A stretch of DNA of 64,000 nt from NCBI GenBank assembly GCA_965221325.1, contig OZ244880.1; one strand, written 5' to 3'. The notes beneath the pieces were generated by a model. The model was not told the origin of the DNA and searched no databases. It was given only the letters and a program-made list of their open reading frames with translations. This DNA comes from Candidatus Foliamicus sp. (GTDB taxonomy: Bacteria; Pseudomonadota; Gammaproteobacteria; Steroidobacterales; Foliamicaceae). Shown here in pieces: positions 43,015 through 61,792 of the stretch. Position 1 is the stretch's first letter. Every line of letters begins with the position of its first letter. The position numbers and the translations under genes are program-made.

Positions 43015-43995
43015 GTGACCAGAAGCGCAGGCGCCGCCGAAGTAACCGACTACATACTCCGCATCACCCGTGAGATCTGGGAGGATGGCAACCCCGACAA
43101 GGTGCTGCGCTACTACGCCCCGGAAGCGCGGATTCATGCCTTGGGCGGAATCATGCGCGGCGCGGCGGAAGTGACCGCCAATACACGCGCCATGCAAGCC
43201 GCTTTCCCCGACCGGTTGGTTATTGGCGAAGAAGTCGTGTGCAGTCCGCTGGACGGAGGTACATGGCTGTCCTCGCACCGCATCCGCAGCCCGATGACCA
43301 GCCTCGGCGCGAATGCGTACGGGCCGGCCACGGGCGGGCGGCTCACCACGCATGTTTTCGCCGATTGCGTGGTGCGCGACGGGATGATCCACAAGGAATG
43401 GCTGACACGGGACAACCTCGACCTGGTGCGGCAGCTCGACCTGGACCCGCTCGCGGTAGCGCGGCGGGAGGCCGTCAAAACTCACCCGGATGAACACCTG
43501 GAGTGGCTTGCCGGCGAAAGACGGCGGGTAATCGCCGGCCCGAAAATCAAAGCGCGCCACGACGCTCCCGCTCTGCAAGCTGACCCCACCAAATATGCCG
43601 AAGCGGTTCTCTCCGGAACCTTGCAGGACGTTTCCGCCGTTCCCGCCGCAGTGTATGCGCCCTACGCCGTCTTGAGCGACTCGCGAACAGACATTGGCGG
43701 CAGGCAAGCGATACTGGCGCACTACGCCGCACTGCGGCAAGCGTTGCGCGTGTTGCGTTTAAGCGTCGATCACGCCGCAGTCGAAGCGCGCGGCGCCGAT
43801 GGGTTCACGCTGGCGGCGCGCTGGACGGCGGCAGCCGAGCATTGCGGTACATTCGAGCGCCTGCCGGCAAGCGGTGCGCCGCTGTTCGTGATGGGTATAA
43901 CGCACTGGTGGCTTACGGGTTCCCGCATAGCGCGCGAGTGGACAGTATTCGACCGGCTGTCGCTGATGGAGCAAATCCTGCGCCATGGCGGTTAA
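43015..43995 (+). CDS. double SnoaL-like/NTF2-fold (predicted ester cyclase type) protein, group A
   Basis: Paralogue of 48699-49892: YILRITREIWEDG, AFPDRL, GPATGGRL...KEW, and a second half ending GITHWWLTGSRIAREWTVFD. GTG 43015 is the only canonical start after the upstream gene; start uncertain. Confidence 0.7.
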   Translation: MTRSAGAAEVTDYILRITREIWEDGNPDKVLRYYAPEARIHALGGIMRGAAEVTANTRAMQAAFPDRLVIGEEVVCSPLDGGTWLSSHRIRSPMTSLGANAYGPATGGRLTTHVFADCVVRDGMIHKEWLTRDNLDLVRQLDLDPLAVARREAVKTHPDEHLEWLAGERRRVIAGPKIKARHDAPALQADPTKYAEAVLSGTLQDVSAVPAAVYAPYAVLSDSRTDIGGRQAILAHYAALRQALRVLRLSVDHAAVEARGADGFTLAARWTAAAEHCGTFERLPASGAPLFVMGITHWWLTGSRIAREWTVFDRLSLMEQILRHGG

Positions 43996-44078
43996 GCGTT
44001 TGCGCTTTCCGGTTGCCGGAAACTGATGCGAAAGGTGAGTTGGCTTCGGCCAGGCGATATATACAAACGGAGGTTTCG

Positions 44079-45050
44079 ATGCGCGGATTCAAAGTTGACA
44101 CGTTCGGCGGCACCGACGTTATGCAGTGGCGCGAACTCGGCGCCTTGCAGCCGGGGCCAAGGCAAGTGCTTGTGCATGTGAAGGCATCCGGGGTGAATTT
44201 CGCGGAAACCCGAATGCGCGCCGGAACCTACTCGGGACAGGAACTGCCTTTCATCATGGGAATGGAAGGCGCCGGTGTAGTTGCCGAATGCGGTGAGCAA
44301 GTTACGGAATTCAATCCCGGCGACCGGGTATTCGGCCGCGCCCGGGGGTCGCACGCGGAGGCGGTCCTGTTCGACGCCGATCACCTCATGCCATTGCCGC
44401 AAAACTTGTCGTTCGTGGAGGGGGCCGCAATCCCGGTGAGCTGGCTCACCGCATGGCACGCGCTGGACGCGGTGGCCGGGATTCGGGAAGGGCAGCGGGT
44501 GCTCATAGAAGCCGTTGCCTCCGGGGTAGGAAGCGCGGCGTTGCAGATTGCGAAATGGGCCGGCTGCTGGGTGGCAGGCACTGCCAGCCGCGACCCCAAG
44601 CTGGAAATCGCTCGTCAATGGGGCGCCGACGCGGTCTACAACTACAAGCGCGACAACATTCCGGTGCGGGTCGGGCGTGACACCGATGGCCGCGGCGTGG
44701 ACATCGGTCTGATGACGATAGGCGAGGAAACAGCGGAGGCGCTGCTGGACGCCATGGGGATGGACGGCAAGATAGTCATGTACGGCAGCACCGGCGGGCG
44801 TCAGGTCTGCTTCAATCTGAATATCGGGGTGAGAAACCTGGCGCTGCTTAGCATGAGCATCTCCACCAGCGAGCGTTTCCTGAGCTACACCATGCCCCGC
44901 TTTCGTGAAGTGGCTCTGCCCTTGTTCGCGAGCGGCGTCTTCAAGGCCCCGGTCGGGACGGTGCTGCCGTTGCAGGAACTAGCGAGAGCCCATCAACTCA
45001 TCGACGAGCGCAACCATTTCGGCAAGATCGTTCTCACGGTGGACGGTTAG
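44079..45050 (+). CDS. NADPH:quinone oxidoreductase / zinc-type alcohol dehydrogenase family
   Basis: GGAGG then ATG 44079. MRGFKVDTFGG...VLVHVKASGVNFAETRMRAGTY, and cofactor loop AVASGVGSAALQIAK. MDR superfamily. Confidence 0.88.
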   Translation: MRGFKVDTFGGTDVMQWRELGALQPGPRQVLVHVKASGVNFAETRMRAGTYSGQELPFIMGMEGAGVVAECGEQVTEFNPGDRVFGRARGSHAEAVLFDADHLMPLPQNLSFVEGAAIPVSWLTAWHALDAVAGIREGQRVLIEAVASGVGSAALQIAKWAGCWVAGTASRDPKLEIARQWGADAVYNYKRDNIPVRVGRDTDGRGVDIGLMTIGEETAEALLDAMGMDGKIVMYGSTGGRQVCFNLNIGVRNLALLSMSISTSERFLSYTMPRFREVALPLFASGVFKAPVGTVLPLQELARAHQLIDERNHFGKIVLTVDG

Positions 45051-45152
45051 CCGGGAGCGCTGAACCCGTGAGTTGCATTATTCCGAGTTAGTGCCAGTGA
45101 AGCGTATGCGGCGGCGCCGCATCGCATCCGCCGGCCCCATGAGAGACCGCGC

Positions 45153-46304
45153 TCAGACGGCGGGCCAAAGGCGTTTGCTGGCAATGGCGGCGCCGGCGGC
45201 CATGGCAGCCAGCTTTGCATAGGCGATGTCCGGGTCCACCGCGCCAAAGCCCGCGAAGGTCGAGAATCCGCAGTCCGTGCCGGCCATTACCCGTTCGCGT
45301 CCGACGATATCGGCAAAGCGACAGATGCGCTCGGCCACCAATTCGGGATGCTCGACAAAATTGGTGGTGGAATCGAGCACCCCGGGAACCAGGATTTTGT
45401 CGCCAGGCAGATCGGCCTCGGCGAACACGCGCCATTCGTGGGCATGGCGCGGATTGGAGGCCTCGAACAAAAGCGCCTGAGGCTTTGCCTTGAGCGCAAT
45501 CGGCAGCACCATTTCCATGGGCGCGTCGTGGTGATGCGGACCTTCGTAGTTTCCCCAGCACACGTGCAACCGCATCCGTTCAGCGGGCAGGTTCCGCAAA
45601 GCATGGTTCAGCGCTTCCACGTGCAGTTCGGCCTGGCGCACATACACATCGTCCGGCTGGCCCTTGAACATCATGTGGCGTCCCAGCCCAAGATCGGGCG
45701 AGTCGAGCTGCAGCAGGAAACCCGCGGCAACGATGGCCTCGTATTCCGGACGCATGGCGTCGGCCAGAGCGTATAGGTAAGCCTCGTGGTTCGGGTAGTG
45801 CCGGTTTGGCTGAAACAGGGCGATGACGCCCGGAGAGGCCGAGTTCATGAACGCGCCCGCGGGGCGGTGACGATCGATGGCGGCGCGGAAGTTGGCGAGA
45901 TCCTGTCGCAGCGGGTCCATGTCCTTGACGCGAATCTCGCCTACGCATTCGGGGCGCCGGTAGCTGGGCGTCCCACCGCTGGCGGCCTGGCGCTGTAGAA
46001 AACCGGGAAATTCCTCAAGGTCGGCGGGTGGGCGCCTGGGACTGTCGCCGGCAAAGCCCGTAATGCGGTCCTTGATGTAGGTAGCGTAGCTGATCTTGCT
46101 CATTTCGCCGTCGGAAACGACATCCACGCCGGCTTCGCACTGGCGCGCCACCACGCTGTCCACCGCTTCGGACAAAAGGGCGTGGCGCGCCGACGGCTCC
46201 ATCCGCTCGCCTTTTTCTTCGCCGAACACCATATCGGTTACTGCCTCGGAGCGAGGCAGGCTGCCTACATGCGTGGTGAGAATGCGTTCCGTGGAGTGCG
46301 GCAT
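45153..46304 (-). CDS. cobalamin-independent methionine synthase (MetE C-terminal)-like Zn protein
   Basis: From ATG 46304: MPHSTERILTTHVGSLPRS. Putative zinc-ligand positions LHVCWGN (His-x-Cys) and AGTDCGF (Cys). About 383 aa, as in the MetE-like II family. Confidence 0.8.
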   Translation of the reverse strand: MPHSTERILTTHVGSLPRSEAVTDMVFGEEKGERMEPSARHALLSEAVDSVVARQCEAGVDVVSDGEMSKISYATYIKDRITGFAGDSPRRPPADLEEFPGFLQRQAASGGTPSYRRPECVGEIRVKDMDPLRQDLANFRAAIDRHRPAGAFMNSASPGVIALFQPNRHYPNHEAYLYALADAMRPEYEAIVAAGFLLQLDSPDLGLGRHMMFKGQPDDVYVRQAELHVEALNHALRNLPAERMRLHVCWGNYEGPHHHDAPMEMVLPIALKAKPQALLFEASNPRHAHEWRVFAEADLPGDKILVPGVLDSTTNFVEHPELVAERICRFADIVGRERVMAGTDCGFSTFAGFGAVDPDIAYAKLAAMAAGAAIASKRLWPAV

Positions 46305-46338
46305 GTTTGGGTCTCCGCGCGAGCCGGGGGTTCGCAGT

Positions 46339-47619
46339 TTAGTCCTGGCCGGCGTAGCGGCGCAGGCGGATGTCGGCCTGTTCCTTGTGTCCGGCAAACC
46401 CCTCCAGCGCGCACAAACGCGAACAGTACTCGCCGATTTCCACGGAAGCCTGCTCGGTAATGCGCTGGTAGGTGCAGGTCTTGATGAACTTGCCCACCCA
46501 CAGCCCGCCGGTATAGCGCGAGGCACGGCGCGTGGGCAAGGTATGGTTGGTGCCGATTACCTTGTCACCATAGGACACATTGGTTTCCGGCCCCAGGAAC
46601 AGAGCGCCGTAGTTGCGCAAGTTGTCGAGAAAATACTGCGGGTCGCGGGTCATGACCTGCACGTGCTCGGAGCCTATCTCGTCGGCCTTGGCCAACATTT
46701 CCTCGTAGTCACTGCACAAGATGACCTGGCCGTAGTCGCGCCAGGCGCGCCCCGCAATATCCGCCGTGGGCAGAACGCCGAGCTGGCGTTCGACTTCCGT
46801 CATGGTGGCTTGCGCCAGCTCCTCGGAATTCGTAAGCAGAATTGCCGGCGAATCGGGGCCGTGCTCGGCCTGTCCGAGCAGGTCCGCCGCGCATAATTCA
46901 CCGTCCACGGAATCGTCCGCGATCACCAGCGTTTCCGTGGGTCCGGCCAATAGATCAATGCCCACGCGCCCGAACAATTGCCGCTTGGCCTCGGCCACGA
47001 AAGCATTGCCCGGCCCCACGATCATGTCCACCGCGGGTATCGCTGCGGTTCCCAGCGCCATGGCGCCAATGGCTTGCACGCCGCCCAGGCAATAGATTTC
47101 ATCAGCGCCGGCCAAGTCCAGGGCCACCACCACCGCCGGGTTGGGCGCTCCTTGAAACGGCGGGGATGCCGCGGCCACGCGCTCGACCCCGGCGACTCGG
47201 GCGGTAACCACGCTCATGTGTGCGGAAGCCACCAGCGGATACTTGCCGCCCGGCACGTAACAGCCGACGCTCTCGACCGGAATGTTGCGGTGACCCAGCA
47301 CAACGCCTGGGCGTGTTTCCACCTCCACATCTGCGAGCGCCTCGCGCTGAATGCGGGCGAAGTTGCGAATTTGCTCCTGGGCGAAACGGATGTCGGCGAT
47401 GGCTTGCGGGTCGAGCCGTGCATGACAGCTATCGATCTCCTGCCGGCTCAGACGGAAGGAGTCCGGCGCCCAGTCGTCAAACTGGCGGGAATAGCGCCGC
47501 ACGGCATCGTCGCCATGCTCGCTGATAGCGTCGAGTATGGTTTCTACAGCCGACTGAACGCGCGCGTCGCGCTCGCTCTGCTGGTCGGCTTCCATGCCTT
47601 TTTTCAGATAGCGAATCAT
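46339..47619 (-). CDS. histidinol dehydrogenase-family (HisD-like) dehydrogenase
   Basis: MIRYLKKG N-terminus, [12 protein letters not shown] (HisD QAEHD-type motif). 426 aa. GAGAGGA lies upstream of ATG 47619. The context is catabolic, not a his operon. Confidence 0.85.
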
Positions 47620-47629
47620 CTCGTCCTCT

Positions 47630-48655
47630 CTAGCCGCTGCCCGGCGGCGTGCGGCTGGCGCGCTGCAGTCGCAGACGCTCGAAAAGATCGTAGCCTAGCT
47701 GCAGGCAGTATTCGATGGTGTCGATCAACACCCAGTTTTCGCGCAGCAGATTGTCCTCGCGGCGCCAGAAGTCCATGACCCGCATGCCCACTTTACGGCC
47801 GGTTGGCGCCAGACCATAGAGAAGGCTGCCCGTGTGCGTGGCCGAAAGACTGTACCAGCCGGTGGAAGCCGCATAGCAGCCGTCGGCGAATCGTGCCACG
47901 TGGGTGCCGCCCTTGCGGTCCGGCAAGGCGTCCAGAAACGGCGTCTGGTGCCAATCCTTGAAACCACGGATGCCGCGGGTGGTTCCGATTCCGGCCGGCC
48001 CGTACCACATGAAGTCCGGGTGCCAGTGCAGGTGATGTCGCATTGTGTCGAGGTCCTGACCATCGTACTGATGCAGTCCTTCGAAGATCATGTCGTCCAC
48101 CAGCTTCAGCGTCGCTTGCGTCTGCGCCTGGTTCTGCTCCTCAAGCACTACGCCGTCGCGCGTGGCGGGGCCCGGCACGATACCGCCGTCAACGGCAATC
48201 GAGGGTGGCAGCAGGGAGACGCCGGCCTGGTGCATGAGGTCGAGCAGGTCGAGCAGCACGTAGCTGGCGGCAATCCGCCCTCGCTCCATGCGAACGAACT
48301 CGCCGTAGCGCAAGTAAGCAAGATTGCCGGTGGCGGGTATTCCCAGCCAGTCGGCGTCGAAGGTGCCTACGTAGTAGCCGGTAGTGCATATCCAGCGGGC
48401 GCCGTCGCAGGCGCCACCGAACAGCAGGTCAACGCGTCGCTCCAGGTCCGGGAAAGAGGCCATGAGCGGATGCAGGAAGCCCTTGAGGTAAGCATCGCGT
48501 CCATCGAGCAGGTTGATCGGATGCGGGCCTTGCCAGGCCGCTTCCGGGGTCATGCGCTGACCGAGTTCCCGTTCGTAGGCGCGCACGCCGTGCCTGCGCC
48601 AGGTCTCGATCAATTCATGCACGGCGCGCTTGTCGCCGCTCAAGCTAGTGCTCAT
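47630..48655 (-). CDS. double SnoaL-like/NTF2-fold protein, group B
   Basis: First half SFPDLERR...[18 protein letters not shown]...[12 protein letters not shown]. Second half ends [31 protein letters not shown]. Confidence 0.8.
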
Positions 48656-48698
48656 GCGTAGTCACGCTCCGTTTGCGGGTCAGTTCTGTGCCGGTAGA

Positions 48699-49892
48699 TT
48701 AGGGCCCTTCGTCTTCCAGCTCCGTCTGCTCCGCGGCGGGTGCGCCGAGCAATTGCATCATCACGTCAAGCTCGTTGAACAGCATCCACTCCTCCGTGAT
48801 GCGCCCATCCTCTATGCGATGCTGGGTGATTCCCCGAATGCGGACTTCGCGGCCGGTCGGCGGGCCGAACACCCCATGACCCCGATGAGCGCCGTAGGCA
48901 TTCCAGCGGGTTGACGCCAGGTAGCCTTCTTCGGGATTGCCCATCCAATAGACCTCGTCCACGTTGAGCGCCAGATCGGGAAACTGCGCCAATAGCGACA
49001 GTACGAACGCCTGGTACGGCCCCAGACCGCTGAACGAGCGATCCGTGGGGCCATTGAACTCGATATTGTCGGCATAGCGCCCTTGCAGTGTGCCCAGCAT
49101 GCGCCGGTTCCAGACGCACTGATACAAACTGCGAATAAAGTCCTCGACATCCAGTTCGCCCGCGATTGACGGCACGGACGGATAGGCGGGCTTGTCCTGA
49201 CCGCGTTGCCGGGCCGCTTCGGCAACGGTGTAGTCGTCGGGCAGCGCCGACGCGCCGCCCTCGGCCATCTGACGCGCCACGTCGCTCAACTCCAGACCCA
49301 TCTGGCGCAGCATGGCCGAGGTGTTGTAGAGCACATGCTCCAGGAAAATCTCGTTTTCCCGCGACACGCAATTGGCGATACACCAGAGCGAAACGCGCTT
49401 CCCCGTCGGCGGACCGTAGCGGCTGTAGCCGGTGTTGTCGCCCTGGATGATCGTGCGGTGCGAGGTATGAAACCCGACTTCCTCGTTGCCGGCCCAGATG
49501 ATTTCGTCGGCCACCAGGCGAATGTTGGGGAAGGCGTTGATCGTGTGCGTGGTGTCGGCGACGATCTTGTCGCGCCCGTATTGCAGGCCGTAGTCGTCAT
49601 AGACGCGGCTGTTGTGGGCGTAGGTGTCGTAGATGTAGCCGATGTCCTTTTCTTCCCAGATGCGGTGCGTGATGCGAACGATGTAATCGATGATGTTGCG
49701 GTATTGCGGTTCGAAACCGTGCATCGACTGGGCCGGCATGTCATCGCGCCCAGCGGCCAGAAAACGATCCGTGCCGCCCCGCGTGTATTGCGCCAGGGAA
49801 ATGGAATAATCGGCCGGCATGTGCGCTTTCGTGAGCCGCGGCAGTCCGGTTTCCGCGTCCTTAGTCTTCTGCAAAGCCTTCTCTTTCGGCAT
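48699..49892 (-). CDS. double SnoaL-like/NTF2-fold protein, group A
   Basis: YIVRITHRIWEEKD, AFPNIRL, GPPTGKRVSLWCI...EHV in the first half. QFPDLAL, GPPTGREVRIRGITQHRIEDGRITEEW in the second half. Confidence 0.8.
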   Translation of the reverse strand: MPKEKALQKTKDAETGLPRLTKAHMPADYSISLAQYTRGGTDRFLAAGRDDMPAQSMHGFEPQYRNIIDYIVRITHRIWEEKDIGYIYDTYAHNSRVYDDYGLQYGRDKIVADTTHTINAFPNIRLVADEIIWAGNEEVGFHTSHRTIIQGDNTGYSRYGPPTGKRVSLWCIANCVSRENEIFLEHVLYNTSAMLRQMGLELSDVARQMAEGGASALPDDYTVAEAARQRGQDKPAYPSVPSIAGELDVEDFIRSLYQCVWNRRMLGTLQGRYADNIEFNGPTDRSFSGLGPYQAFVLSLLAQFPDLALNVDEVYWMGNPEEGYLASTRWNAYGAHRGHGVFGPPTGREVRIRGITQHRIEDGRITEEWMLFNELDVMMQLLGAPAAEQTELEDEGP

Positions 49893-49931
49893 GTTTTGCT
49901 GGCCTGAGGCCGTAAATCAGGGCCGCTTATT

Positions 49932-49959
49932 TTGCATGTTTGCTGTCGGTGTGTATAGT
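49932..49959 (+). promoter_or_regulatory. candidate sigma70 promoter for TBDR 49993
   Basis: TTGCAT-N16-TATAGT, ending 34 nt upstream of ATG 49993, in the 100-bp divergent intergenic region. Confidence 0.35.
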
Positions 49960-49992
49960 AAGTCCCCTTTTTTGGACTCCCGGGAAAAACCT

Positions 49993-52332
49993 ATGAATTC
50001 CAAGGCCAAGTTTTTGCCGACAACCAGCCCGATTGCGCTGATTGCTGCATTATTCGCCGTCAACGCGGCGCAGGCGCAGGGCGCGCTGGAGGAAATCGTG
50101 GTCACCGCGCAAAAGCGCGATCAGAGCCTGCAGGACGTATCGGTGGCGGTTACCGCCGTGTCCGGCGACGAATTGAAGGCCTTGGGCATCACCGATTCGT
50201 TCCGGCTGGAAATACTGGCGCCGGGATTGCAGTTAGGCATGTCCGGCGCGGACCCGCGGCCCGCATTGCGCGGCGCCCGCACCCAGCAGGTGGAAGCCAA
50301 CGATGTCGCCATTTCCTTCTATACCGACGGCCTTTACCGTCCGCGCCACGGGCAGGCCCTGGCAGGCTTTGTGGATGTGGACCGCGTCGAAGTGTTGCGC
50401 GGACCGCAGGGCACGCTGTTCGGGCGCAACTCCTTCGGCGGGCTGATTCACGTCATCAGCAACCGGCCTGATCCTTCCGCCACGGATTACGGCTTCGCTC
50501 TGTCCGGCGGCGACTATTCGCTGGCCGGCTTCGACGGTTTTTTCAATGCGCCCTTGAGCGACAACTCCGCGGTGCGCCTGGCGCTGAAGACGGAAACGCG
50601 CGACCCGTTCGTGCAGAACATCACGATCGGCGACGACGGCGGCCTCAAGGACGCCGATATGACCTACTTTCGCGGCCAGCTTTCGTTTGCGCCCAGCGAC
50701 GCCATGGACCTGCTGTTCCGCGTTGAGAGCTGGCAGGACGATTCCAACGGCAATGGTCATTTCGGCTACTATCCGGAGGGCGTTCCGGTAAATTTGAACA
50801 CCGGTCTGACCAATGGCGTGTCCGGCACCATGCGGCCGCGCATCGGGCGCTCCGACGAATGCGCGGGCACCTGTGGACGCTATGGCGCCGGATTTGATTT
50901 CGTCGCGACGCCTGGGCTTGATACGGCCGCGCCGGTGACCGGTGACCCCTACAGGATTGCCGACGACACGCCGCCGGAGCGAGACCTTTCCGAACTTACA
51001 CTGGCGGGCGATCTGAACTGGGCGCTGGATTTCGCCGACCTGAAGGTAACGGTCGCCTACATGGACTACGAGGAATATCGCTGGGCCGATTGTGACATGT
51101 CCGCCTATCAGACCACGGCCTGCGGCAACGACATCACGTCCGAAACCAACATGCAGGAATTCCAGCTCACCTCCAACTCCGATGGCGCCCTGGAATGGGT
51201 CGTTGGCGTGTTCCTGCTGCAGGAAGACATGACCAACGCATTTCTCTGGGAAGACTTCGCTTCCGTCGTGGACAACACGCCGGTAAGCCCGCCGGACATC
51301 AACGCGCACGCCACATGGACCAACCAGATCCGGGTCGATACTTCATCCGCCGCGGGATACGGACAGGCTTCGTATGCCGTCACCGACGCCACGCGCGTGC
51401 TGGCCGGAGTGCGCTACACGAGCGATGAGCGCGACTGGCAGATTTACGGCCAGGACCCGAACAACACTTCGACCTACTCGTTTACCGTGCTGGAAGTGCC
51501 CGACGGCGAGGGTGACTGGAGCGAGGTCACCTGGAAGGCCGGCGTGGAGCTTGATACGAGCGAAGACACGATGCTCTATTTCACCGTGTCCACGGGCTTT
51601 CTGGCCGGTAACCAGCAGGGCGCTTTCCAGGGCACGAACTCGTACGACGAGCAGACGGTCACCGCCTACGAAGCCGGCGCCAAGAGCTTGCTGGCGGACG
51701 GTCGAGTGCGGCTCAACGCCTCGCTTTACATGAACCAGTTCGAAGACCTGCTCTCGACGCGCTTCGTCGATACCGGCGTGACCACGCTGGCCTTCACCGA
51801 CAACTCCGGCGCTATCGACGCTGTAGGCCTGGAAGTGGAAATGGACTGGGCCGTTACCGACCAGTTGCAGTTGGGCGCAAGGATGGCTGTCCAGCAAGCC
51901 GAGTATGGCGACTTCGTTTTGCCCAATGTGTACCAGGAGGGTGGTCAAACGATAAGAGGCACGGACAATCACTTCCAACTGGACGGTCTTCAGGTGCAGA
52001 ACTCGCCCGACTTCACGGCCACGCTGCTGGGCAGCTACACGGCGGACCTGGCGGGAGCCGGCACGTTGATTCCGGCTATTACCCTCTACTATTCGTCTGA
52101 CTACCGGGTGGACGACTCGAACTGGTTCTACGGCAATCAGGAAGCGTTCACCAAGACGGACTTGAGCCTGACCTGGGTTTCCATCAGTCAGGACTGGACC
52201 GCCCGCTTGTGGGTCAACAACATCGAAGACGAAGCCACCCTTCTCAAGGCGACGCGCTTCGGCGGCGACCTCGCGGTAACGGATTACGCCAACCCGCGGA
52301 TGTGGGGCCTTACTGTGGGCTACCGCTACTAG
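49993..52332 (+). CDS. TonB-dependent receptor
   Basis: Signal peptide MNSKAKFLPTTSPIALIAALFAVNAAQA, plug start LEEIVVTAQKRDQSLQD, barrel region, and terminal VGYRY. The track start at 49819 is too far upstream. Confidence 0.9.
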   Translation: MNSKAKFLPTTSPIALIAALFAVNAAQAQGALEEIVVTAQKRDQSLQDVSVAVTAVSGDELKALGITDSFRLEILAPGLQLGMSGADPRPALRGARTQQVEANDVAISFYTDGLYRPRHGQALAGFVDVDRVEVLRGPQGTLFGRNSFGGLIHVISNRPDPSATDYGFALSGGDYSLAGFDGFFNAPLSDNSAVRLALKTETRDPFVQNITIGDDGGLKDADMTYFRGQLSFAPSDAMDLLFRVESWQDDSNGNGHFGYYPEGVPVNLNTGLTNGVSGTMRPRIGRSDECAGTCGRYGAGFDFVATPGLDTAAPVTGDPYRIADDTPPERDLSELTLAGDLNWALDFADLKVTVAYMDYEEYRWADCDMSAYQTTACGNDITSETNMQEFQLTSNSDGALEWVVGVFLLQEDMTNAFLWEDFASVVDNTPVSPPDINAHATWTNQIRVDTSSAAGYGQASYAVTDATRVLAGVRYTSDERDWQIYGQDPNNTSTYSFTVLEVPDGEGDWSEVTWKAGVELDTSEDTMLYFTVSTGFLAGNQQGAFQGTNSYDEQTVTAYEAGAKSLLADGRVRLNASLYMNQFEDLLSTRFVDTGVTTLAFTDNSGAIDAVGLEVEMDWAVTDQLQLGARMAVQQAEYGDFVLPNVYQEGGQTIRGTDNHFQLDGLQVQNSPDFTATLLGSYTADLAGAGTLIPAITLYYSSDYRVDDSNWFYGNQEAFTKTDLSLTWVSISQDWTARLWVNNIEDEATLLKATRFGGDLAVTDYANPRMWGLTVGYRY

Positions 52333-52352
52333 TCCGCTTTGCCGTTTTCGAA

Positions 52353-52390
52353 AGACCGGGTTCTGCCATGGCGGAGCCCGGTCTTTTTTT
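52353..52390 (+). terminator. rho-independent terminator
   Basis: agaccggg (52353-52360) pairs with cccggtct (52377-52384), followed by a run of T to 52390, 20 nt after the TBDR stop. Confidence 0.7.
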
Positions 52391-52442
52391 GCGCCCAAGC
52401 GCAGACTTGCATGTCTGGCCAGACCGGAACGCGGGCTAGCGG

Positions 52443-54053
52443 ATGATCGAATTCGGCGCGCTCAACTGGACGATTGTCGGCGCTTACCTGGCCGGCACGC
52501 TGGTGCTCGGCGCCTTCCTGAGCAAGCGCGTTCAAACCGCCCAGCACTACTACCTGGGACAGCGCACAACCCCCTGGTGGGTTATCGGCGTGTCCGTGGT
52601 GGCTACCTATTTCGGCGCCATCACGTTCCTGGGCGGGCCGGCCTGGTCGTACAAGGACGGCTTCGCGGTGATCTTCATCCACATCAACTACCCGATCGTT
52701 ATCTTCATCGTCAACGCGCTATTCCTGCCATTCTTCTACAACACCGGCGTCGCCTCGATCTTCGACTACCTGGAGCGCCGTTTCGGACTGGCCTCGCGGA
52801 CGCTCATGTCGGCCGTATTCCTGTTCGGCAACATCGCCTACTCCGGAATCATGCTCTACACCACCGCGCTGGTGCTGCAGCTCATCACCGGCATGGATGT
52901 GGTCAACGCCATTCTCGTTATCGCGGTGGTTGCCGTTACCTACACGATGCTCGGCGGGATTTCTGCCGTGATATGGACCGACCTGATCCAGAGCGCCGTG
53001 CTGTTCATTGGGGCGGCGGTTGTCATGGTCATGCTGGTCGGCGGGCTGCCCGACGGTTTCCTGGGCTCGTTGCAGGGGCTGAAGGAAATGGGCAGGGCCA
53101 ATCCGTTCGAATACAGCTTCGATCCATCGGTAGTCGCCACCATCTGGACCGGCGTCATCGCCATGTCGGTGTATCACGTCGTGGTTTACGGAGTGAACCA
53201 GATGATGATCCAGCGCACGCTGGCAGCCAGGACGTTGGGCGACGCAAAGAAAGCCTATGCCTTCATGGGCTATGCAGCGTTTCTCGTTTACGTCGTTTTC
53301 TTTCTGATCGGGATTCTTCTTTACAGCTACTACGGCGGCAGGGATTTCGATAACGACAACCGCATTGTCCTGGACTTCGTAAACACCATAGGCCTGCCGG
53401 GCCTGATGGGCGTGATTACGGCGGCCATCGTGGCGGCGGCGATGTCCAGTCTGGATTCGAGCCTCAACTCGATGGCCACCGTCACCACGCTCGACTTCTA
53501 CGAGAAATTTTTCAGGAAAGGCGCATCGCCAGAACACTACCTGCGGGCATCGCGCTGGTTCACGCTGATGTGGGGCGTCCTGACGGTGGCGCCGGCCATT
53601 ATCGTGGCGCAGCGGGCCGACATATCGGTTCTGGAGATCCTGAGCAAGGTCGGCGTGTTCCTGGTGGGCTCGAAGCTGGCCATGTTCGGGCTGGGCTTCT
53701 ACTCCAAGCACGCGACGCAAAAGGGCGTAATTGCGGGCGTGGTGGCGGGATTCGCCGCGCTTTGGTATGTCGAAACCTTCCTGGACGTGGCCTGGCCCTG
53801 GTATGCCGTGCTGGGAGGCGTCGTCAGCATTGGCGTCTCGCTGTTGGCAAGCCTGCTCCTGGATGGCCGCCAGAAGCAATACTCGCTCTGGACGGTGCAG
53901 GGTCAGAAGGCCGAGTTCGCACGCAAGGGCTTGCCCGAGAAGAAAGACGGCTGGTACGTGATTCCCGGCAAGATCGACCGATCGAGCTGGTTCCTGCTGG
54001 TCTATTTCGCCTTCTGCGTGGTGGCGCTGGCGGTGGTTTACGGGTTGATCTGA
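52443..54053 (+). CDS. sodium:solute symporter (SSS) family transporter
   Basis: 536 aa, about 13-14 TM segments. N-terminal pattern NWTIVGAYLAGTLVLGAFLSKR...YYLGQR...WWVIGVSVVATYFGAITFLG is typical of SSS. Confidence 0.9.
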   Translation: MIEFGALNWTIVGAYLAGTLVLGAFLSKRVQTAQHYYLGQRTTPWWVIGVSVVATYFGAITFLGGPAWSYKDGFAVIFIHINYPIVIFIVNALFLPFFYNTGVASIFDYLERRFGLASRTLMSAVFLFGNIAYSGIMLYTTALVLQLITGMDVVNAILVIAVVAVTYTMLGGISAVIWTDLIQSAVLFIGAAVVMVMLVGGLPDGFLGSLQGLKEMGRANPFEYSFDPSVVATIWTGVIAMSVYHVVVYGVNQMMIQRTLAARTLGDAKKAYAFMGYAAFLVYVVFFLIGILLYSYYGGRDFDNDNRIVLDFVNTIGLPGLMGVITAAIVAAAMSSLDSSLNSMATVTTLDFYEKFFRKGASPEHYLRASRWFTLMWGVLTVAPAIIVAQRADISVLEILSKVGVFLVGSKLAMFGLGFYSKHATQKGVIAGVVAGFAALWYVETFLDVAWPWYAVLGGVVSIGVSLLASLLLDGRQKQYSLWTVQGQKAEFARKGLPEKKDGWYVIPGKIDRSSWFLLVYFAFCVVALAVVYGLI

Positions 54054-54059
54054 CCCGCT

Positions 54060-55094
54060 TCAGGGTAGCCTGAGCGCGATTCCGGCTTCCCGAAATACAT
54101 CGAATTCCAGTTGCAGGAGCATATCCACGAGGTCGATGAGAACCCAGTTTTCGGCCAGGACGTCCCCACTCCGCCGCCAGATGTCACAGAGGCGAACGGT
54201 GAACATCTGCCCCTTGCCCTCCACACCCAGCCACGGGCGCACCAGGAAGCCGCCGTGCGATGGCCACCCTCCACAGGCCACGTACGCGCCATCCGCAAAG
54301 CGGGCGTAATGCCCCTTTACGCGCTCGTCGAGTTGCGCATCGCCGGATTTGCGAAACGCGCTGGAGAACCTGCCGGGCGCGAAGACTCCTTCGTAAGGCA
54401 ATTGAAACCGGCAAAAGCCCTCCATGCCGAAATAGCTGCCGTATCCCGACGGCCCGTACCAGCACATATTGGGGCTCCAGTAGGGCCTCCAGCCCTCCTC
54501 TTCCGTCCATAGTTCCGCAAGCATGTCCTCGACTGTCTTGAGGCTCGTCCGCGATTGGTTCGGATCCTGCTCCGAACGGAGCATTCCATCGCCGGTGGCC
54601 GGCCCCGGAACGAATCCCTCGTGCCCCATGCTGGGCGGCAGCGGCCAACTCCCGAGCTGCCGCAAGAGATCCAGCATGTCCCAATAGAGGTAGCTCTCTA
54701 CCGAACGGCCCGCCTCCATGCGATGGAATTCCGCATAGTGCAGCCAGGTGGCTTGGCCGTGCGCCGGGATGCCCATCCAGTCTTCAACGAATTCGCCCAT
54801 GTAGTGGCCGTGACTGACCACCCACTCGGACCCTTGGCGTTCGCCCCCGAAAAGCATGTCGCTGCGCCGATGCAGGTAGCGAAAGGAATGCGAAAGGGGT
54901 TTCACCACGCGCTCGATAAACTGTTCGGCGCCATCCACCCGGTTGATGGGTTGCACCACGTTGACCGTTGCTTGCGGGTGCAGGAATGTGCGCAGCGCGG
55001 ATCGCACGCGCACTGGATCGCCGTACGCATAGTCGGCAACAAGCTCGGCGTAGCGCTGCTTGTTGCGCAGCGTGGTCCCGGTGGCGATGCCCAT
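54060..55094 (-). CDS. double SnoaL-like/NTF2-fold protein, group B
   Basis: WMGIPAHGQATWLHYAEF...MLDLLRQLG in the first half. The second half ends MFTVRLCDIWRRSGDVLAENWVLID. Its ATG abuts the upstream gene's stop (TGAATG). Confidence 0.8.
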   Translation of the reverse strand: MGIATGTTLRNKQRYAELVADYAYGDPVRVRSALRTFLHPQATVNVVQPINRVDGAEQFIERVVKPLSHSFRYLHRRSDMLFGGERQGSEWVVSHGHYMGEFVEDWMGIPAHGQATWLHYAEFHRMEAGRSVESYLYWDMLDLLRQLGSWPLPPSMGHEGFVPGPATGDGMLRSEQDPNQSRTSLKTVEDMLAELWTEEEGWRPYWSPNMCWYGPSGYGSYFGMEGFCRFQLPYEGVFAPGRFSSAFRKSGDAQLDERVKGHYARFADGAYVACGGWPSHGGFLVRPWLGVEGKGQMFTVRLCDIWRRSGDVLAENWVLIDLVDMLLQLEFDVFREAGIALRLP

Positions 55095-56138
55095 TCAGGT
55101 GCGGGTGATTGAGCGGACGCGGCCCAGCAAGTCCACGCCCAGCGGCAGAAGGTAGTGCAGCATGTCGATGAATACCCAGTTCTCGGCCAGCTTGTCACCG
55201 TCGCGCCGGTAGATGTCCACCACACGCATCTCGGTGGGACGATCCGAGGCCGGCAGGCCCATGAAGCCAGCGCCCTGCTTGAGCTCCAGATTGGGCCAGC
55301 CGAACCAGCCGCCATAGCAGCCCTCGGCGTGCTCCAGGACATGACCATTGAACACGATGTCGTTCAAACCCTCGCGGAAGGGCCCTTGGTGCTGAACCTG
55401 GTAGCGCGCAATGGTGTAGGTGGAACCTATGCCGGCCGGGCCGAACCAGATCATGTCCTCATGCCACGTGGAAGCAAGCGAGGCATTGGGCGACTGGAAG
55501 CCGTCCTTGTCCACGAGATCGTCGCACATACGCAGTATGAGTTGCAGGGTTTTTCTGGAATCCGCCTCGTCTTGAGGCTCCAGCAGGATGCCGTCCTGGG
55601 TGCGGGGTGGCGGATGCAGGACGGGGGAGCCGGTCTGCATCGGCAGGGGATTGAGCCCGGCCTGCTGCATCAAGCTGACGATGTCGCAAAACAGCGCAGT
55701 TTCGGCGATCTTGCCCCCCTCGATGCGAAAGAACTCGCAGTAGGGCAGCATGGCGACCTTGCCGGTGGAAGGGATGCCCAGCCAGTGATTGTCGAACAAG
55801 CCGAAGAACTTGCCCATGCTGGTGACCCAAAGAGTTCCGTCGAGCCCGTTGGGGCCCGCCATGAATATCTCCTGGCGCCGCTGCATGCGCGGAAACGCTG
55901 CCCGCAAGGGCTCCCACACCGTCTCGGAAATTGCCGACGCACCCTCGATTTCATTGAACGGATGCACGCCGCGGAAAGTCAGCCCGTCGTGGGCATACTT
56001 GGTGATTACGTCACCAATCCGGCCCGGGCGGGCACTCTCGAACGCGTGGAAGTAGTCCAGAACGCAAGCTTTCGCCCGCGCAATGTCGCTTCGGCGCACT
56101 CCCTTGCGATCCCCCGCCCGATTCGCGACGCCGGCCAT
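55095..56138 (-). CDS. double SnoaL-like/NTF2-fold protein, group B
   Basis: AFPRMQRR...WLGIPSTGKVAMLPYCEF...IVSLMQQAG in the first half. The second half ends PTEMRVVDIYRRDGDKLAENWVFID. Confidence 0.8.
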   Translation of the reverse strand: MAGVANRAGDRKGVRRSDIARAKACVLDYFHAFESARPGRIGDVITKYAHDGLTFRGVHPFNEIEGASAISETVWEPLRAAFPRMQRRQEIFMAGPNGLDGTLWVTSMGKFFGLFDNHWLGIPSTGKVAMLPYCEFFRIEGGKIAETALFCDIVSLMQQAGLNPLPMQTGSPVLHPPPRTQDGILLEPQDEADSRKTLQLILRMCDDLVDKDGFQSPNASLASTWHEDMIWFGPAGIGSTYTIARYQVQHQGPFREGLNDIVFNGHVLEHAEGCYGGWFGWPNLELKQGAGFMGLPASDRPTEMRVVDIYRRDGDKLAENWVFIDMLHYLLPLGVDLLGRVRSITRT

Positions 56139-56159
56139 CCACTCGACGCCGCTTGCCGG

Positions 56160-58505
56160 TCAGAAGCTGTAACTCAGGTTTACGCCAAAGTGCCGCCCGC
56201 GGTTAAGGTTGGCCAACTGGGCATACGGGAATGTGAAGTCGCCCGTGGTCAGATCAAAGCGCGCGAAGCGGCGCAGATCGCGGAAACGGAACGACCCGGC
56301 CAGAGTGCGGTCATCCAGGATGTTGTTGACGTAGGCCGTGAGCTTCCAGTTGTCGCTCTGCAGCCCGGTGCGCAAGTTCCACTTGTATTCCCAGCCGAGG
56401 TAGGACAGGTTGTAGATTTCCGACCAGCGCTTTCCGATCATGTTCAGATCGGTGCGCGCGAAGAAATCCCAGCCGCTGAATGCGCCCGGCCTGTTGTAGT
56501 CGGCCGAGAGCTGAATCTGCCAGTCCGGATAGCGATAGGGCTCGTTGCCGGCAAGGTCGGGATCTACACCTAGCTGCGGCGCGAAGGTTTCTTCCACGAA
56601 GAACTTGTACTCCGGAGCCGCGTAACCGATAGACCCGGAGAAAAGCCAGTTCTCCGTTGCCAGAAAGCTGGTTTCCAGCTCCACTCCATAGACCTCCGTC
56701 TCGCCCGCATTGGTGGTAATGGTCGAATCCTGTCCCTGGGCGTCCAGGAACGTCTGGCGGATCTGCTGATTCGACCAGTCCAGGTAGTAAACCGCCGCAT
56801 TGAGCAGCACCCTGCCGTCCATCCACAGCGTCTTGGCGCCCAACTCGTAGTTCCAGATGGTTTCTTCCTTCACGGTGGGTTCCACGCCGAGGTTCCCCGC
56901 CACCGCGCGGTTGTTGAAGAAGCCGGGCTTGTTCCCCTGCGAAATTACGCCGTAGAGCGTCATGTCCTCGTCGGGTTTGTAATCCACGATGAAACGCGGC
57001 AGCACCCGTTCGAAACTCGCCGTGTCGAACCGGAACGCATCCACATCCTCGTTCGAGCCCAGCCCCGGAACCTCGGGCGGCGTCTGCGGGTCGAACTCCG
57101 CAGTGGATTCCCGCACATCGTCCTCCTGCCAGCGTACGTCCAGACCCATGGAAAGCTGGTCGTTCAGGTCGTAAGTCACACTGCCGAATACGGACACGTT
57201 CTCGATGTGGCGAGAGCTCTCGGCCCGCCCAAACGGGCGCGAGGGAGACAGCCGCAGGTTGCGGCCCAGGATATCGTGCTCGTAGTACGACACACCCGCG
57301 AAAGCCGTCAGGCGATCCGACCCGGGTGCCCTGACCTTGAACTCCAGGCTCATGTCCTGGAAACCCTGATAGGACCTGTTGGCCTCCACAAGTCCGACAC
57401 TTCCGAACACCAATCCGCCCGTGCCGCCAAGGCCGTTGGGCACGCCGATGCTGTCATCGTAACTTGCGTCCAGGATCGTATCTACGGTTTGCTGATTAGA
57501 GCCGGCACGCAGCTCGAACGTCCAGTCGTTGCGGGTTACGTAATCCAACTGCGCGGTGTAGCGGCGCGTAGTCTGGAGCTGGCCCACAGGCTCCCCGAAA
57601 CGCTCGGCCACCCGTTTGTTGTTCTGCTCGACGGTGTCCAGATCGGACGGCAGCTCGCCGCATATGTAGCCCAGGGGTATGCTGGAGTTGTAGAACAGGC
57701 AGTTGTCCAGCGACTCCGGCAGGCTGAGCGTTGGCGGTGCGCCGTCATCGTCTTCCGCCCACGAGCCGAACAGCGTGACGGTGAGTTGGTCGTTGGGCTC
57801 CCAAAGCAACTTGCCCGATATGGCTTGGGTCCTCTCGTCGCCGACCGTGGCGTTGTCCTCCAGAGCGGCGACATTGGTCCACTCGCCGCCGAACTCGTAG
57901 TAGCGGGCGCTCACCAGGGCCTTCAAGGTGTCGGTGCCGAACAGCGGACCGGAAACTGTCACAGCCGTATCGGAGCGGCTGTGCTCGCCCAGATCGAAAA
58001 TGGCGTCGAATTCCAGCTCGTCGCCCGGCGACTTGGTGATGTAATTGACGGCGCCGCCGAAGGTGGCGCGGCCGAACAGGGCCGACTGCGGGCCCTTGAT
58101 CACTTCGACCCGTTCAATGTTGTTGAAGCCGAAGGTGGCCGCCGTGCCGAGAACGAAAAACCCGTCCACGAACACCGAGGAGTTTTGGCGGTCAACCACC
58201 GACGTGTTCACGACCAGGCCGCGGAAATAAGGATTGGCGTCGCGCCCGCCCACCGTTTCGGTGTAGAACCCGGGCGTATAGTCCGCCAAGTCGAGAATGT
58301 CATTGACGCCGCGGTCGTAAATGTTTTCATTGGTGAGCGCGGTGACCGTCAGCGGCAGAGATTGCAGGTTCTCTTCGCGCTTGCGCGCGGTGACGATGAT
58401 CTCTTCCAGGGCAAGCTCCTGGGCAAATGAAGGCGGAGAGTCGTATGCGATGGCAATCAATGCCGCGATTCCCGCAGACGCGAATAGTCTGATGCTTCTG
58501 GTCAT
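56160..58505 (-). CDS. TonB-dependent receptor
   Basis: ATG 58505 is preceded by GGGAGGAGG. Signal peptide MTRSIRLFASAGIAALIAIA, plug start LEEIIVTARKREENLQS, terminal NLSYSF. The track ORF extension to 58778 runs into the 5S rRNA and is spurious. Confidence 0.9.
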   Translation of the reverse strand: MTRSIRLFASAGIAALIAIAYDSPPSFAQELALEEIIVTARKREENLQSLPLTVTALTNENIYDRGVNDILDLADYTPGFYTETVGGRDANPYFRGLVVNTSVVDRQNSSVFVDGFFVLGTAATFGFNNIERVEVIKGPQSALFGRATFGGAVNYITKSPGDELEFDAIFDLGEHSRSDTAVTVSGPLFGTDTLKALVSARYYEFGGEWTNVAALEDNATVGDERTQAISGKLLWEPNDQLTVTLFGSWAEDDDGAPPTLSLPESLDNCLFYNSSIPLGYICGELPSDLDTVEQNNKRVAERFGEPVGQLQTTRRYTAQLDYVTRNDWTFELRAGSNQQTVDTILDASYDDSIGVPNGLGGTGGLVFGSVGLVEANRSYQGFQDMSLEFKVRAPGSDRLTAFAGVSYYEHDILGRNLRLSPSRPFGRAESSRHIENVSVFGSVTYDLNDQLSMGLDVRWQEDDVRESTAEFDPQTPPEVPGLGSNEDVDAFRFDTASFERVLPRFIVDYKPDEDMTLYGVISQGNKPGFFNNRAVAGNLGVEPTVKEETIWNYELGAKTLWMDGRVLLNAAVYYLDWSNQQIRQTFLDAQGQDSTITTNAGETEVYGVELETSFLATENWLFSGSIGYAAPEYKFFVEETFAPQLGVDPDLAGNEPYRYPDWQIQLSADYNRPGAFSGWDFFARTDLNMIGKRWSEIYNLSYLGWEYKWNLRTGLQSDNWKLTAYVNNILDDRTLAGSFRFRDLRRFARFDLTTGDFTFPYAQLANLNRGRHFGVNLSYSF

Positions 58506-58876: not shown

Positions 58877-61792
<2,916 letters not shown>

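Follow-up and report, generated by a model that had tools for sequence, protein, structure and literature searches.

The NTF2 fold is the scaffold of acid/base enzymes such as ketosteroid isomerase, scytalone dehydratase, SnoaL, and LEH. Single-domain SnoaL-like proteins (SnoaL, AknH, IdmH, AclR/SnoaL2, ChaU) are homodimers or tetramers of about 140 amino acids that belong to aromatic polyketide pathways, and in Lsd19 and MonBI-MonBII (3rga, 4rzm, 9kw6) two NTF2/LEH-like domains are combined in one chain or complex of cofactor-free acid/base catalysts. Here we describe a locus of Candidatus Foliamicus sp. (Gammaproteobacteria) that occupies positions 40625-58505 of a 64-kb stretch of DNA (hereafter the window), with uvrA on one side and a ribosomal RNA (rRNA) operon on the other, and that encodes five tandem NTF2-type proteins, designated A1, A2, B1, B2, and B3 (Table 1). 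The locus is the outer-membrane-receptor version, with two TonB-dependent receptors (TBDRs) and a Na+ symporter, of a widespread and usually LacI-controlled module. In kind it is a substrate-utilisation locus and as such already known; its core enzymology is undescribed. Judged by sequence comparison, the module spans phyla and is not a local expansion of paralogues. The recurrence of this gene set in many bacterial phyla makes an undescribed breakdown pathway probable.

The first-pass annotation of this DNA had proposed five open reading frames (ORFs) with two SnoaL-like domains each, and ORF translation together with Pfam searches bears this out: PF07366 (SnoaL) is matched by all five proteins with 57-94 bits against a cutoff of 28.4 (E 2e-15 to 8e-27), every time in two separate stretches, one per protein half, and four of the five also score above the cutoff of PF12680 (SnoaL_2). 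The division into two sequence groups holds equally: In pairwise BLASTP comparisons, A1 and A2 (group A) share 26% identity over 327 residues (E 2e-28), the mutual identities of B1, B2, and B3 (group B) amount to 31-39% (E 1e-53 to 1e-69), and comparisons of A with B are merely marginal. The motifs quoted at that time are present, except that the spacing in group B has to be corrected to W[LM]GIP..G......Y.EF, with six residues before the tyrosine instead of four. Within one protein the halves are distantly related to each other, as exemplified by A2 (26% identity between N- and C-terminal half, E 1e-14). The assignment of these halves to the SnoaL/NTF2 type is also reflected in AlphaFold2 (AF2) models of A2 (pLDDT 88, pTM 0.87) and B3 (pLDDT 90.6, pTM 0.91), in which two NTF2-type units are joined by a linker of 30-50 residues and the alpha+beta cone fold, three helices on a curved sheet, is seen in both proteins. 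The isolated domains of the two models superpose on IdmH, 3kkg, and AclR with TM-scores of 0.75-0.84 (Foldseek). Sequence searches of the PDB with A2 and B1 returned weak single-domain matches alone, NCBIfam holds no specific family for the five tandem proteins or the neighbouring bicupin, and TIGR02096 (ketosteroid-isomerase-related) is weakly matched by the tandem proteins, which public annotation names "ester cyclase" (PGAP) or "NTF2 family protein". A literature search (tandem SnoaL, COG5485, ester cyclase with HisD, SnoaL with TonB, sponge, Foliamicus) gave no description of this gene set; a report of "two SnoaL" in Sinorhizobium was set aside, as it concerns unrelated single-domain proteins. 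The earlier statement that no characterised pathway contains this set of genes thus stands for PDB sequences and folds, NCBIfam, and the literature.

The question of the pockets in A2 and B3 was addressed through per-domain conservation. In A2, 47% of the positions in the N-domain are at least 97% conserved versus 22% in the C-domain; in B3, it is the C-domain that reaches 50%, versus 28% in the N-domain. Asp, Glu, His, Tyr, and Arg abound in the strongly conserved domains, and A2 contains invariant Arg residues. The invariant positions of the conserved domain are D69, Y70, R73, E80, H145, R146, and E185 in A2 and H251, Y260, R290, D293, R296, R297, and E304 in B3 (counted from residue 16 of its 347-aa ORF). 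Since strong conservation is found in one domain alone, the N-domain in A and the C-domain in B, each of the two proteins would possess one active site: by their conservation, A2 and B3 look like fused pseudo-dimers of one catalytic and one supporting domain. Neither carries a signal peptide or a cofactor-binding domain, so that both are probably cytoplasmic acid/base catalysts. Their chemistry is probably that of a hydrolase, lyase, or isomerase on a carbonyl-conjugated substrate, and the abundance of Asp, Glu, His, Tyr, and Arg in the conserved domains fits acid/base chemistry on such a substrate in anionic form.

To place the locus among other genomes, 80 genomic loci around A2 orthologues were examined together with annotated plasmid records, and neighbouring genes were scored by tblastn; all counts given in the following refer to genes within 10 kb in 89 loci. 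Antisense ORFs that arose as artefacts when the ORFs of high-GC loci were clustered (c16, c21, c23, c44) were discarded, and tblastn with known queries as well as the annotated records were used. A2 has 2231 detectable homologues, with orthologues of 55-62% identity in Chloroflexota, Rhizobiaceae, Paracoccaceae, Sphingomonadaceae, and Paraburkholderia; B3 has 3159, and its identity to proteins of other gammaproteobacterial families is 65-70%. Taken together, Alpha- and Gammaproteobacteria, Chloroflexota, Actinomycetota, and Deinococcus contain orthologues of A2 and B3 (45-70% identity), which nearly always adjoin a transporter (sugar-type ABC, TBDR, MFS, or TRAP). A B-type gene lies near A2 in 55 of the 89 loci, a LacI gene in 51, and a sugar-type (CUT1) binding protein in 43, followed by HisD-like orthologues (24), TBDR (18), SDR (16), bicupin (14), MetE-like (12), sodium:solute symporter (SSS; 11), HpcH aldolase and amidase (8 each), and alpha/beta hydrolase genes (6); additional tandem-NTF2 paralogues and RraA are further recurrent partners. 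The number of tandem-NTF2 genes per locus ranges from one to seven, which puts the five of the window near the upper end.

This survey also bears on how the locus had been described in the first-pass annotation. The expected co-occurrence of the paralogues with transporters is seen in related and in distant genomes, and the named neighbours (two TBDRs, an SSS, and HisD-like, MetE-like, and quinone oxidoreductase genes) are confirmed by Pfam and NCBIfam matches. The genes assigned to the locus were right, and its left end had been drawn too short, because the bicupin gene at 40625-41659 belongs to the module. The same gene qualifies the remark that no hydrolase or oxygenase is present: none was found in the locus, and the metal-binding bicupin next door had been overlooked. 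A regulator is indeed missing, in that tblastn detects no LacI-type gene in the 64-kb window; the absence is specific to the lineage, given LacI in more than half of the orthologous loci as counted above. A shared LacI-type palindromic operator was sought in five intergenic regions of the locus and not found.

Gene order in the ten closest relatives (85-91% identity) agrees with that of the window, and the closest relatives of the organism are metagenome-assembled genomes (MAGs) whose names suggest sponge metagenomes; we take them, from the isolate names, to be of sponge origin. Gene content differs among the close relatives L005-L013: in L005-L010, B1 is missing and the HisD-like gene directly follows A2, with the quinone oxidoreductase retained in L005-L008 and L010, and in L011-L013 (Ca. 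Foliamicus) B1, A1, and the cupin are present and no quinone oxidoreductase was detected, so that the module is under remodelling within the family. Distant versions with TBDR and SSS exist in the Halieaceae MAG L015 and in L091 (a 5.9-Mb genome), both with LacI; the order in L091 is TBDR, A, B, SSS, LacI, MetE-like, A, B, bicupin. In L015, four transposase genes (DDE_3 twice, DDE_Tnp_1, IS1595) break up the module between 762 and 19524, and LacI is apparently split into ORFs 11159-11824 and 11893-12210, which suggests decay or recent rearrangement. Annotated full sets are found in the cultured strains of Octadecabacter arcticus 238, Pantoea dispersa, Deinococcus, Novosphingobium, Roseibium, and Alloyangia. 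The fullest of them resides on plasmid pOA238_160 of Octadecabacter arcticus 238, where a first part (SBP-permease-permease-A-B) is accompanied by a second one (ATPase-hisD-"ester cyclase"-SDR-LacI-"NTF2 family"-cupin-"methionine synthase II family"-alpha/beta hydrolase-RraA). An ADP-ribosylglycohydrolase homologue is located beside the module in 29 of the 89 loci: in Chloroflexota (e.g., L003 11491-20700) together with a PfkB kinase, a nucleoside hydrolase, YjbQ, and a Bmp-type ABC transporter, and in Pantoea dispersa (L088 16522-19803) together with a PfkB kinase and a nucleoside permease. This group is possibly a separate nucleoside-type utilisation unit, or functionally linked to the module.

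Moreover, the paralogues of the window correspond to different positions in these distant sets. The counterpart of A2 is the A-type gene beside the transporter (49-62% identity) and that of B3 is the B partner of this gene (45-67%): A2 is the transporter-linked core enzyme and B3 its partner. The counterparts of B1 are, in Octadecabacter, the "ester cyclase" flanked by hisD and SDR (39%) and, in L091, the protein L091_d (48%); those of A1 are L091_c (42%, the best distant orthologue) and the Octadecabacter NTF2 gene beside the cupin (31%); close orthologues of B2 were seen in near relatives alone. Because they map to distinct positions, the five genes are paralogues of old age and different function and did not arise by recent expansion. 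The module divides into two sub-modules: the first consists of uptake genes, A2, and B3, and stands alone in Ensifer and Phaeobacter; the second comprises the HisD-like, SDR, and cupin genes, a MetE-like or hydrolase gene, and an aldolase gene, and has its own TRAP transporter in Roseibium.

Among the companions of the tandem proteins, the dehydrogenase passes the HisD family models (TIGR00069, 464 bits against a cutoff of 243.8; PF00815, Table 1) and scores higher against CpHpsN (8v35; 396 bits, 49% identity) than against true HisD (281 bits). The catalytic pairs Glu318-His319 and Asp352-Lys353 of HpsN are kept, the aligned SEH and GDK being identical. In HpsN, the loop motif G-R-Y-A/S-H carries the sulfonate-binding His126 (PMC11382572). 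The dehydrogenase of the window reads GKYPL at this loop, and since it has neither the GRY[AS]H signature of HpsN nor the GSAPL signature of HisD, we assign it to a third subgroup. By its sequence, it probably oxidises a CH2OH group beside a hydroxyl or amine to the carboxylate. Its orthologues in the 24 loci (62-74% identity) lie mostly beside an SDR gene. Catabolism of 2,3-dihydroxypropanesulfonate (DHPS) or another sulfonate was rejected since His126 of HpsN is not present, and histidine biosynthesis because of the catabolic operon context and the motif. For the MetE-like protein, all NCBIfam methionine-synthase equivalogs remain below cutoff (best PRK04326, 103 bits versus 406); the residues H247-x-C249, E281, and C345, which are taken as Zn ligands by motif resemblance to MetE and not by structural alignment, are invariant in five orthologues of 60-74% identity from four classes. 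The N-terminal cupin of the bicupin shows the metal motif G-x5-HxH-x3-E and the motif of the C-terminal cupin is degenerate, as read from the sequence. Bicupin orthologues (42-58%) lie inside the module in Octadecabacter, Roseibium, Novosphingobium, S. medicae, Paraburkholderia, and L091, and a PDB sequence search revealed no close solved structure. The solved relatives nearest to the SSS are the sialic-acid symporter SiaT (5nv9, 180 bits), then SMVT, SMCT1, and NIS, with vSGLT behind; SSS orthologues of 65-72% identity occur in L015 and L091, and orthologues of the first receptor, TBDR1, beside A2 in Halieaceae (55%) and sphingomonads (30-33%). The quinone oxidoreductase (TIGR02824, 217 bits, below cutoff) is confined to this lineage, as it is near the module in 5 of the 89 loci, all from close relatives.

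Clues to the substrate come from transport, regulation, and neighbouring genes. Uptake and regulation are of the sugar type (CUT1 ABC, LacI; in sphingomonads GH42 and an MFS sugar carrier). A carboxylate is indicated by the branch of the SSS (SiaT, SMVT, SMCT), by the TRAP transporter in Roseibium, by the invariant Arg residues of A2, and by the retained Asp-Lys of the dehydrogenase. Of all clues, the genes of threonine catabolism next to the module are the most specific. In Ensifer adhaerens, genes for L-threonine 3-dehydrogenase (tdh) and glycine C-acetyltransferase (kbl), both above the NCBIfam equivalog cutoffs, stand between B and LacI, and in one Paracoccaceae MAG and one Sphingobium MAG tblastn places this pair next to genes of the module. 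The Halieaceae MAG contains a tdh above the cutoffs and, at the contig end, a kbl fragment below them; both are situated about 5 kb past the module with transposase genes in between. An Anaerolineae contig contains tdh alone, cut by the contig end and supported by a tblastn match only. In another Paracoccaceae MAG, the B gene is followed by a threonine dehydratase above cutoff, and an ORF that groups with this dehydratase (by ORF clustering only) precedes LacI in a Sphingomonadaceae MAG. Threonine-catabolic genes are thus found at the module in seven loci of five lineages and by two non-homologous routes; for tdh, 0.2-0.5 adjacencies would be expected by chance (p 2e-6 to 2e-4 in a rough Poisson estimate with crude assumptions and loci that are not all independent). 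Furthermore, a solA-type secondary-amine oxidase gene precedes an A-type gene in Roseomonas, and in Pantoea, Deinococcus, Novosphingobium, Roseibium, and Alloyangia the A-type genes have amidases and a second HisD paralogue in their company. In PDB sequence searches, the ABC binding protein matched distant sugar-binding proteins only, the alpha/beta hydrolase gave generic esterase and MCP-hydrolase matches, and the sole match of the RraA-like protein was an uncharacterised entry. Because threonine genes adjoin the module and the symporter resembles carboxylate carriers, the substrate may be an anionic, sugar-like amino-acid conjugate.

We therefore favour, tentatively and with the chances somewhat against it, the reading that the locus is an uptake and catabolism island for a carboxylate-bearing, sugar-like conjugate that releases amino acids, with mycosporine-like amino acids (MAAs) being the best-fitting substrate. 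Every catalytic role and the substrate are here inferred from gene content, folds, conservation, and co-occurrence. A2 and B3 would cleave a small, hydrophilic, carboxylate-bearing conjugate and thereby release amino acids including threonine; the remaining sugar- or cyclitol-like core would be degraded by B1, A1, the HpsN-like dehydrogenase, the MetE-like protein, and the bicupin, and elsewhere by the SDR, the alpha/beta hydrolase, and the RraA/HpcH aldolase. MAAs and mycosporines are metabolites that screen UV and are abundant in algae, cyanobacteria, fungi, and marine invertebrates; in the mycosporines of fungi and cyanobacteria, the substituents are amino alcohols (glutaminol, serinol). 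Several properties of MAAs agree with the module: their C7 cyclitol-derived ring fits sugar-like transport, the N-linked glycine plus threonine (porphyra-334) or serine (shinorine) fits both the release of Thr, Ser, and Gly and the carboxylates, the tertiary alcohol bearing a CH2OH suits oxidation by the HpsN-like enzyme, and the reductone/beta-diketone core suits a cupin dioxygenase. Glycosylated MAAs would explain GH42 in some loci.

That MAAs such as porphyra-334 and shinorine are the actual substrate, and the module consequently the missing bacterial pathway of MAA and mycosporine catabolism, is possible but on balance unlikely. In such a pathway, A2 and B3, with paralogues for other substituents, would represent a new class of cofactor-free hydrolases, which detach the N-linked amino acids of the cyclohexenimine or cyclohexenone ring. 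Oxidation of the ring CH2OH at the tertiary alcohol would fall to the HpsN-like dehydrogenase, and loss of the O-methyl group would be due to the MetE-like protein or, once the ring is open, to an esterase. Opening of the reductone ring by the cupin would yield an acid resembling citrate or 4-carboxy-4-hydroxy-2-oxoadipate (or its methyl ester) as a substrate for the RraA/HpcH aldolase, whereby 4-deoxygadusol would be converted to central metabolites. HisD2 and the amidase of soil and leaf strains would handle the amino-alcohol mycosporines (glutaminol, serinol). Hydrolytic removal of Ser and Thr from shinorine and porphyra-334 by bacteria, which gives mycosporine-glycine and 4-deoxygadusol, has been reported, and MAAs occur in sponges (PMC3083659). 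An enzyme for this hydrolysis is not named in that review, and none was found in our literature search.

Several points weigh against the MAA-type conjugate. The literature on genes of MAA catabolism gave nothing for or against it, and searches of PDB sequences and folds, NCBIfam, and the literature yielded no homologue of known function. The window itself contains neither threonine genes nor LacI, aldolase, or hydrolase genes, and the threonine genes are present at just 7 of the 89 loci. LacI and CUT1 ABC systems usually signify sugars, and GH42, PL22-like, DHDPS, MR_MLE, or Gfo/Idh/MocA genes in some loci point to glycosides or sugar acids, the neighbours in Chloroflexota being of the sugar-acid type. 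Neither the bicupin nor the RraA-like protein is close to a characterised dioxygenase or to CHA aldolase. Finally, the retained Lys of the dehydrogenase suggests an anionic group near the diol, which 4-deoxygadusol offers in the form of an enolate only.

Part of these observations would be accommodated by the catabolism of a sugar acid, that is, a uronate or unsaturated uronate, a 2-keto-3-deoxy acid, or a nonulosonic or ulosonic acid (a sialic-acid relative or Kdo), which we regard as rather improbable. The tandem-NTF2 proteins would then be cofactor-free isomerases, hydratases, or openers of anhydro rings, and the HpsN-like enzyme would oxidise a terminal glycol to an aldaric-type acid prior to cleavage by an HpcH, RraA, or DHDPS aldolase. 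The closeness of the SSS to SiaT, the frequency of CUT1 ABC and LacI in the module, the GH42 genes of sphingomonads, and the DHDPS, Gfo/Idh/MocA, PL22-like, and MR_MLE genes upstream in Chloroflexota all agree with such a substrate, and HpcH aldolase, SDR, and cupin recall GarL, KduD, and KduI. However, the cupin does not match the KduI family, no recurrent sugar kinase or Eda-type aldolase accompanies the module, and the neighbours in Chloroflexota may be mere inherited synteny within one order. Also, tdh and Kbl, threonine dehydratase, the amidases, and the amine oxidase beside the module are left unexplained. Amadori- or opine-type conjugates (fructosyl-amino acids and their relatives) would reconcile the sugar-type transport and regulation with the amino-acid-catabolic neighbours: the NTF2 proteins would enolise the conjugate and beta-eliminate the amine, leaving a reductone for cleavage by the cupin. 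The oxidase of the solA/amadoriase family beside an A-type gene points in this direction, and the CUT1 ABC uptake of fructosamines in Bacillus provides a precedent. Nevertheless, we consider this doubtful: there is no known reason for threonine as the released amino acid, a Frl-type kinase or deglycase is not present, no role is evident for the HpsN-like, MetE-like, and aldolase genes, and the module is abundant in sponge-type and marine lineages.

Release of threonine would also fit the salvage of modified nucleosides, for example N6-threonylcarbamoyl-adenosine, in which the NTF2 proteins would be ureido- or amido-hydrolases with the NTF2-fold protein AtzH as a precedent. The ADP-ribosylglycohydrolase homologues beside the module, with the nucleoside hydrolase, PfkB, and Bmp-type ABC genes of Chloroflexota and the PfkB and nucleoside permease genes of Pantoea, speak for a nucleoside; these genes, however, are encoded on the other strand or have a GntR regulator of their own, they occur neither in the window nor in most proteobacterial loci, and the HisD-like, cupin, MetE-like, and aldolase genes as well as the sugar-type uptake would be unexplained, which makes this salvage very improbable. 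We give least credence to secondary-metabolite biosynthesis (with SnoaL-type cyclases or Lsd19-type epoxide hydrolases) or the degradation of hydrophobic steroids or aromatics. It finds support in the PGAP name "ester cyclase", in the weak TIGR02096 matches, and in the tandem epoxide hydrolases Lsd19 and MonBI-BII as the best matches of the full-length fold. Over the full length, though, the TM-score to Lsd19 amounts to just 0.27-0.40, no polyketide synthase (PKS), nonribosomal peptide synthetase, oxygenase, or tailoring genes are located in the window locus or in about a dozen annotated loci inspected, and the genes sit in an uptake context with LacI in the majority of loci, next to sugar-type ABC and SSS carriers that are ill-suited to hydrophobic substrates. 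Polyketide biosynthesis in particular was rejected for want of a PKS.

Whatever its substrate, the module has at its constant core two families with thousands of public members each, linked to transporters and controlled by regulators; a common environmental compound would be taken up and degraded by enzymes without assigned function. Cultured carriers (Octadecabacter arcticus 238, Phaeobacter piscinae, Ruegeria conchae, Ensifer adhaerens, Pantoea dispersa, and Deinococcus) allow direct testing. If MAAs are the substrate, the module would supply the enzymes for the bacterial activity cited in the 2011 review (PMC3083659) and would explain how symbionts of sponges and algae recycle a major nitrogen-containing pool of sunscreens. 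If it is another compound, a new catabolic route would still result, with a new architecture in which one domain of a fused NTF2 pseudo-dimer is predicted to be active.

Table 1. Coordinates of the genes of the locus and of its borders in the 64-kb window.
Feature	Coordinates	Strand	Remarks
uvrA (left border)	37612..40587
Bicupin	40625..41659	-	344 aa; Pfam Cupin_2 in two stretches
Small protein, predicted signal peptide	42105..42608	+	inside ORF 41907-42608; no Pfam match; locus membership uncertain
A1, tandem SnoaL/NTF2	43015..43995	+	326 aa; start codon uncertain
Quinone oxidoreductase, MDR/PIG3 type	44076..45050	+	ADH_N and ADH_zinc_N
MetE-like Zn alkyl-transferase-fold protein	45153..46304	-	383 aa; catalytic barrel only; PF01717 49 bits
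HisD-family four-electron alcohol dehydrogenase, HpsN-like	46339..47619	-	Histidinol_dh PF00815 472 bits
B1, tandem SnoaL/NTF2	47630..48655	-	341 aa
A2, tandem SnoaL/NTF2	48699..49892	-	397 aa; conserved 65-residue N-terminal extension
TBDR1	49993..52332	+	Plug and TonB_dep_Rec_b-barrel
SSS	52443..54053	+	SSF 161 bits; carboxylate-carrier branch
B2, tandem SnoaL/NTF2	54060..55094	-	344 aa
B3, tandem SnoaL/NTF2	55095..56138	-	347-aa ORF; NCBI start GTG 56099 gives 334 aa
TBDR2	56160..58505	-	Plug and barrel
5S-23S-tRNA-Ala-tRNA-Ile segment (right border)	58606..62196	-
5S rRNA	58606..58721	-
23S rRNA	58878..61791	-
tRNA-Ala	61981..62056	-
tRNA-Ile	62120..62196	-

Some details of the locus map deserve mention. 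B3 is identical to the protein cluster that includes WP_446830809.1. The longest ORF of TBDR2 (872 aa, to 58778) runs through the 5S rRNA gene; because of this overlap, we place the start at the Met at 58505, after which a signal peptide follows. Automatic calling of the longest ORF would mis-annotate TBDR2. The ORF between bicupin and A1 has an internal Met followed by a hydrophobic leader that resembles a signal peptide, MKKIKKNRYGKALFAMAVLGMAALAFPEESHA, and no family match. A promoter-like site lies at 49931-49959, before TBDR1. In the 102-bp gap between the convergent quinone oxidoreductase and MetE-like genes there is a perfect palindrome of 17 nt, ATGCGGCGGCGCCGCAT, at 45106-45122, which is likely a bidirectional terminator hairpin; a simple terminator scan did not call it, as it has no T-run. 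On the right, the rRNA segment accounts for a drop of the GC content at 58-62 kb. Within the window no 16S rRNA gene comes after tRNA-Ile, the place being taken by an ORF for a ChrR-type cupin (62546-63412) and a luciferase-like monooxygenase, so the 16S gene may be unlinked from 23S-5S in the Foliamicus genome. Upstream of the locus, an RND-type efflux set (27468-33125, minus strand) consists of a 1036-aa ORF as a putative member, an HlyD-type membrane-fusion protein, and an outer-membrane efflux protein; the CorC, PhoH, and MiaB-like radical-SAM genes that come after it look like housekeeping genes unrelated to the locus.

Compared with the described systems, the tandem proteins are closest to Lsd19 and MonBI-MonBII, which are the top full-length Foldseek matches of the A2 and B3 models (E about 1e-9 to 1e-11). 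The resemblance is limited to about 10-12% identity, TM-scores of 0.27-0.40, and a root-mean-square deviation of 16-17 Å, with no match to them in PDB sequence searches, and from these TM-scores it follows that the domain arrangement differs from that of Lsd19. Moreover, both domains of Lsd19 are catalytic, whereas one domain per protein is strongly conserved in A2 and B3, and Lsd19 is encoded in a PKS cluster, whereas the proteins of the window belong to an uptake locus. Each window half matches the same hidden Markov models (HMMs) as the single-domain SnoaL-like proteins, and the modelled domains of A2 and B3 resemble them in fold (TM-score about 0.75-0.84); in contrast to these homodimers and tetramers, the window proteins are fused from diverged halves and have a catabolic context. 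With uptake genes and no PKS or tailoring genes around them, they lack the genomic surroundings of the SnoaL polyketide-cyclase family. The dehydrogenase shares with HpsN the usual company of an SDR, in that its orthologues stand beside one as HpsN does with HpsO and HpsP (PMC11382572); it passes the family HMM of HisD, but has neither the GSAPL motif nor a histidine-biosynthesis context. The MetE-like protein has the Pfam domain of the catalytic barrel and the His-x-Cys...Glu...Cys set in common with MetE, but lacks the N-terminal folate-binding barrel, scores below cutoff, and sits in a catabolic operon. As a whole, the locus follows the layout of proteobacterial TBDR substrate-utilisation loci, with receptor, inner-membrane carrier, and cytoplasmic enzymes, and in other taxa the same enzymes follow a LacI/ABC system as in LacI/CUT1 sugar operons, although the window itself is without LacI. 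What sets it apart from both kinds of loci is its core: a pair of tandem-NTF2 proteins in place of a glycoside hydrolase, kinase, or known catabolic enzyme.

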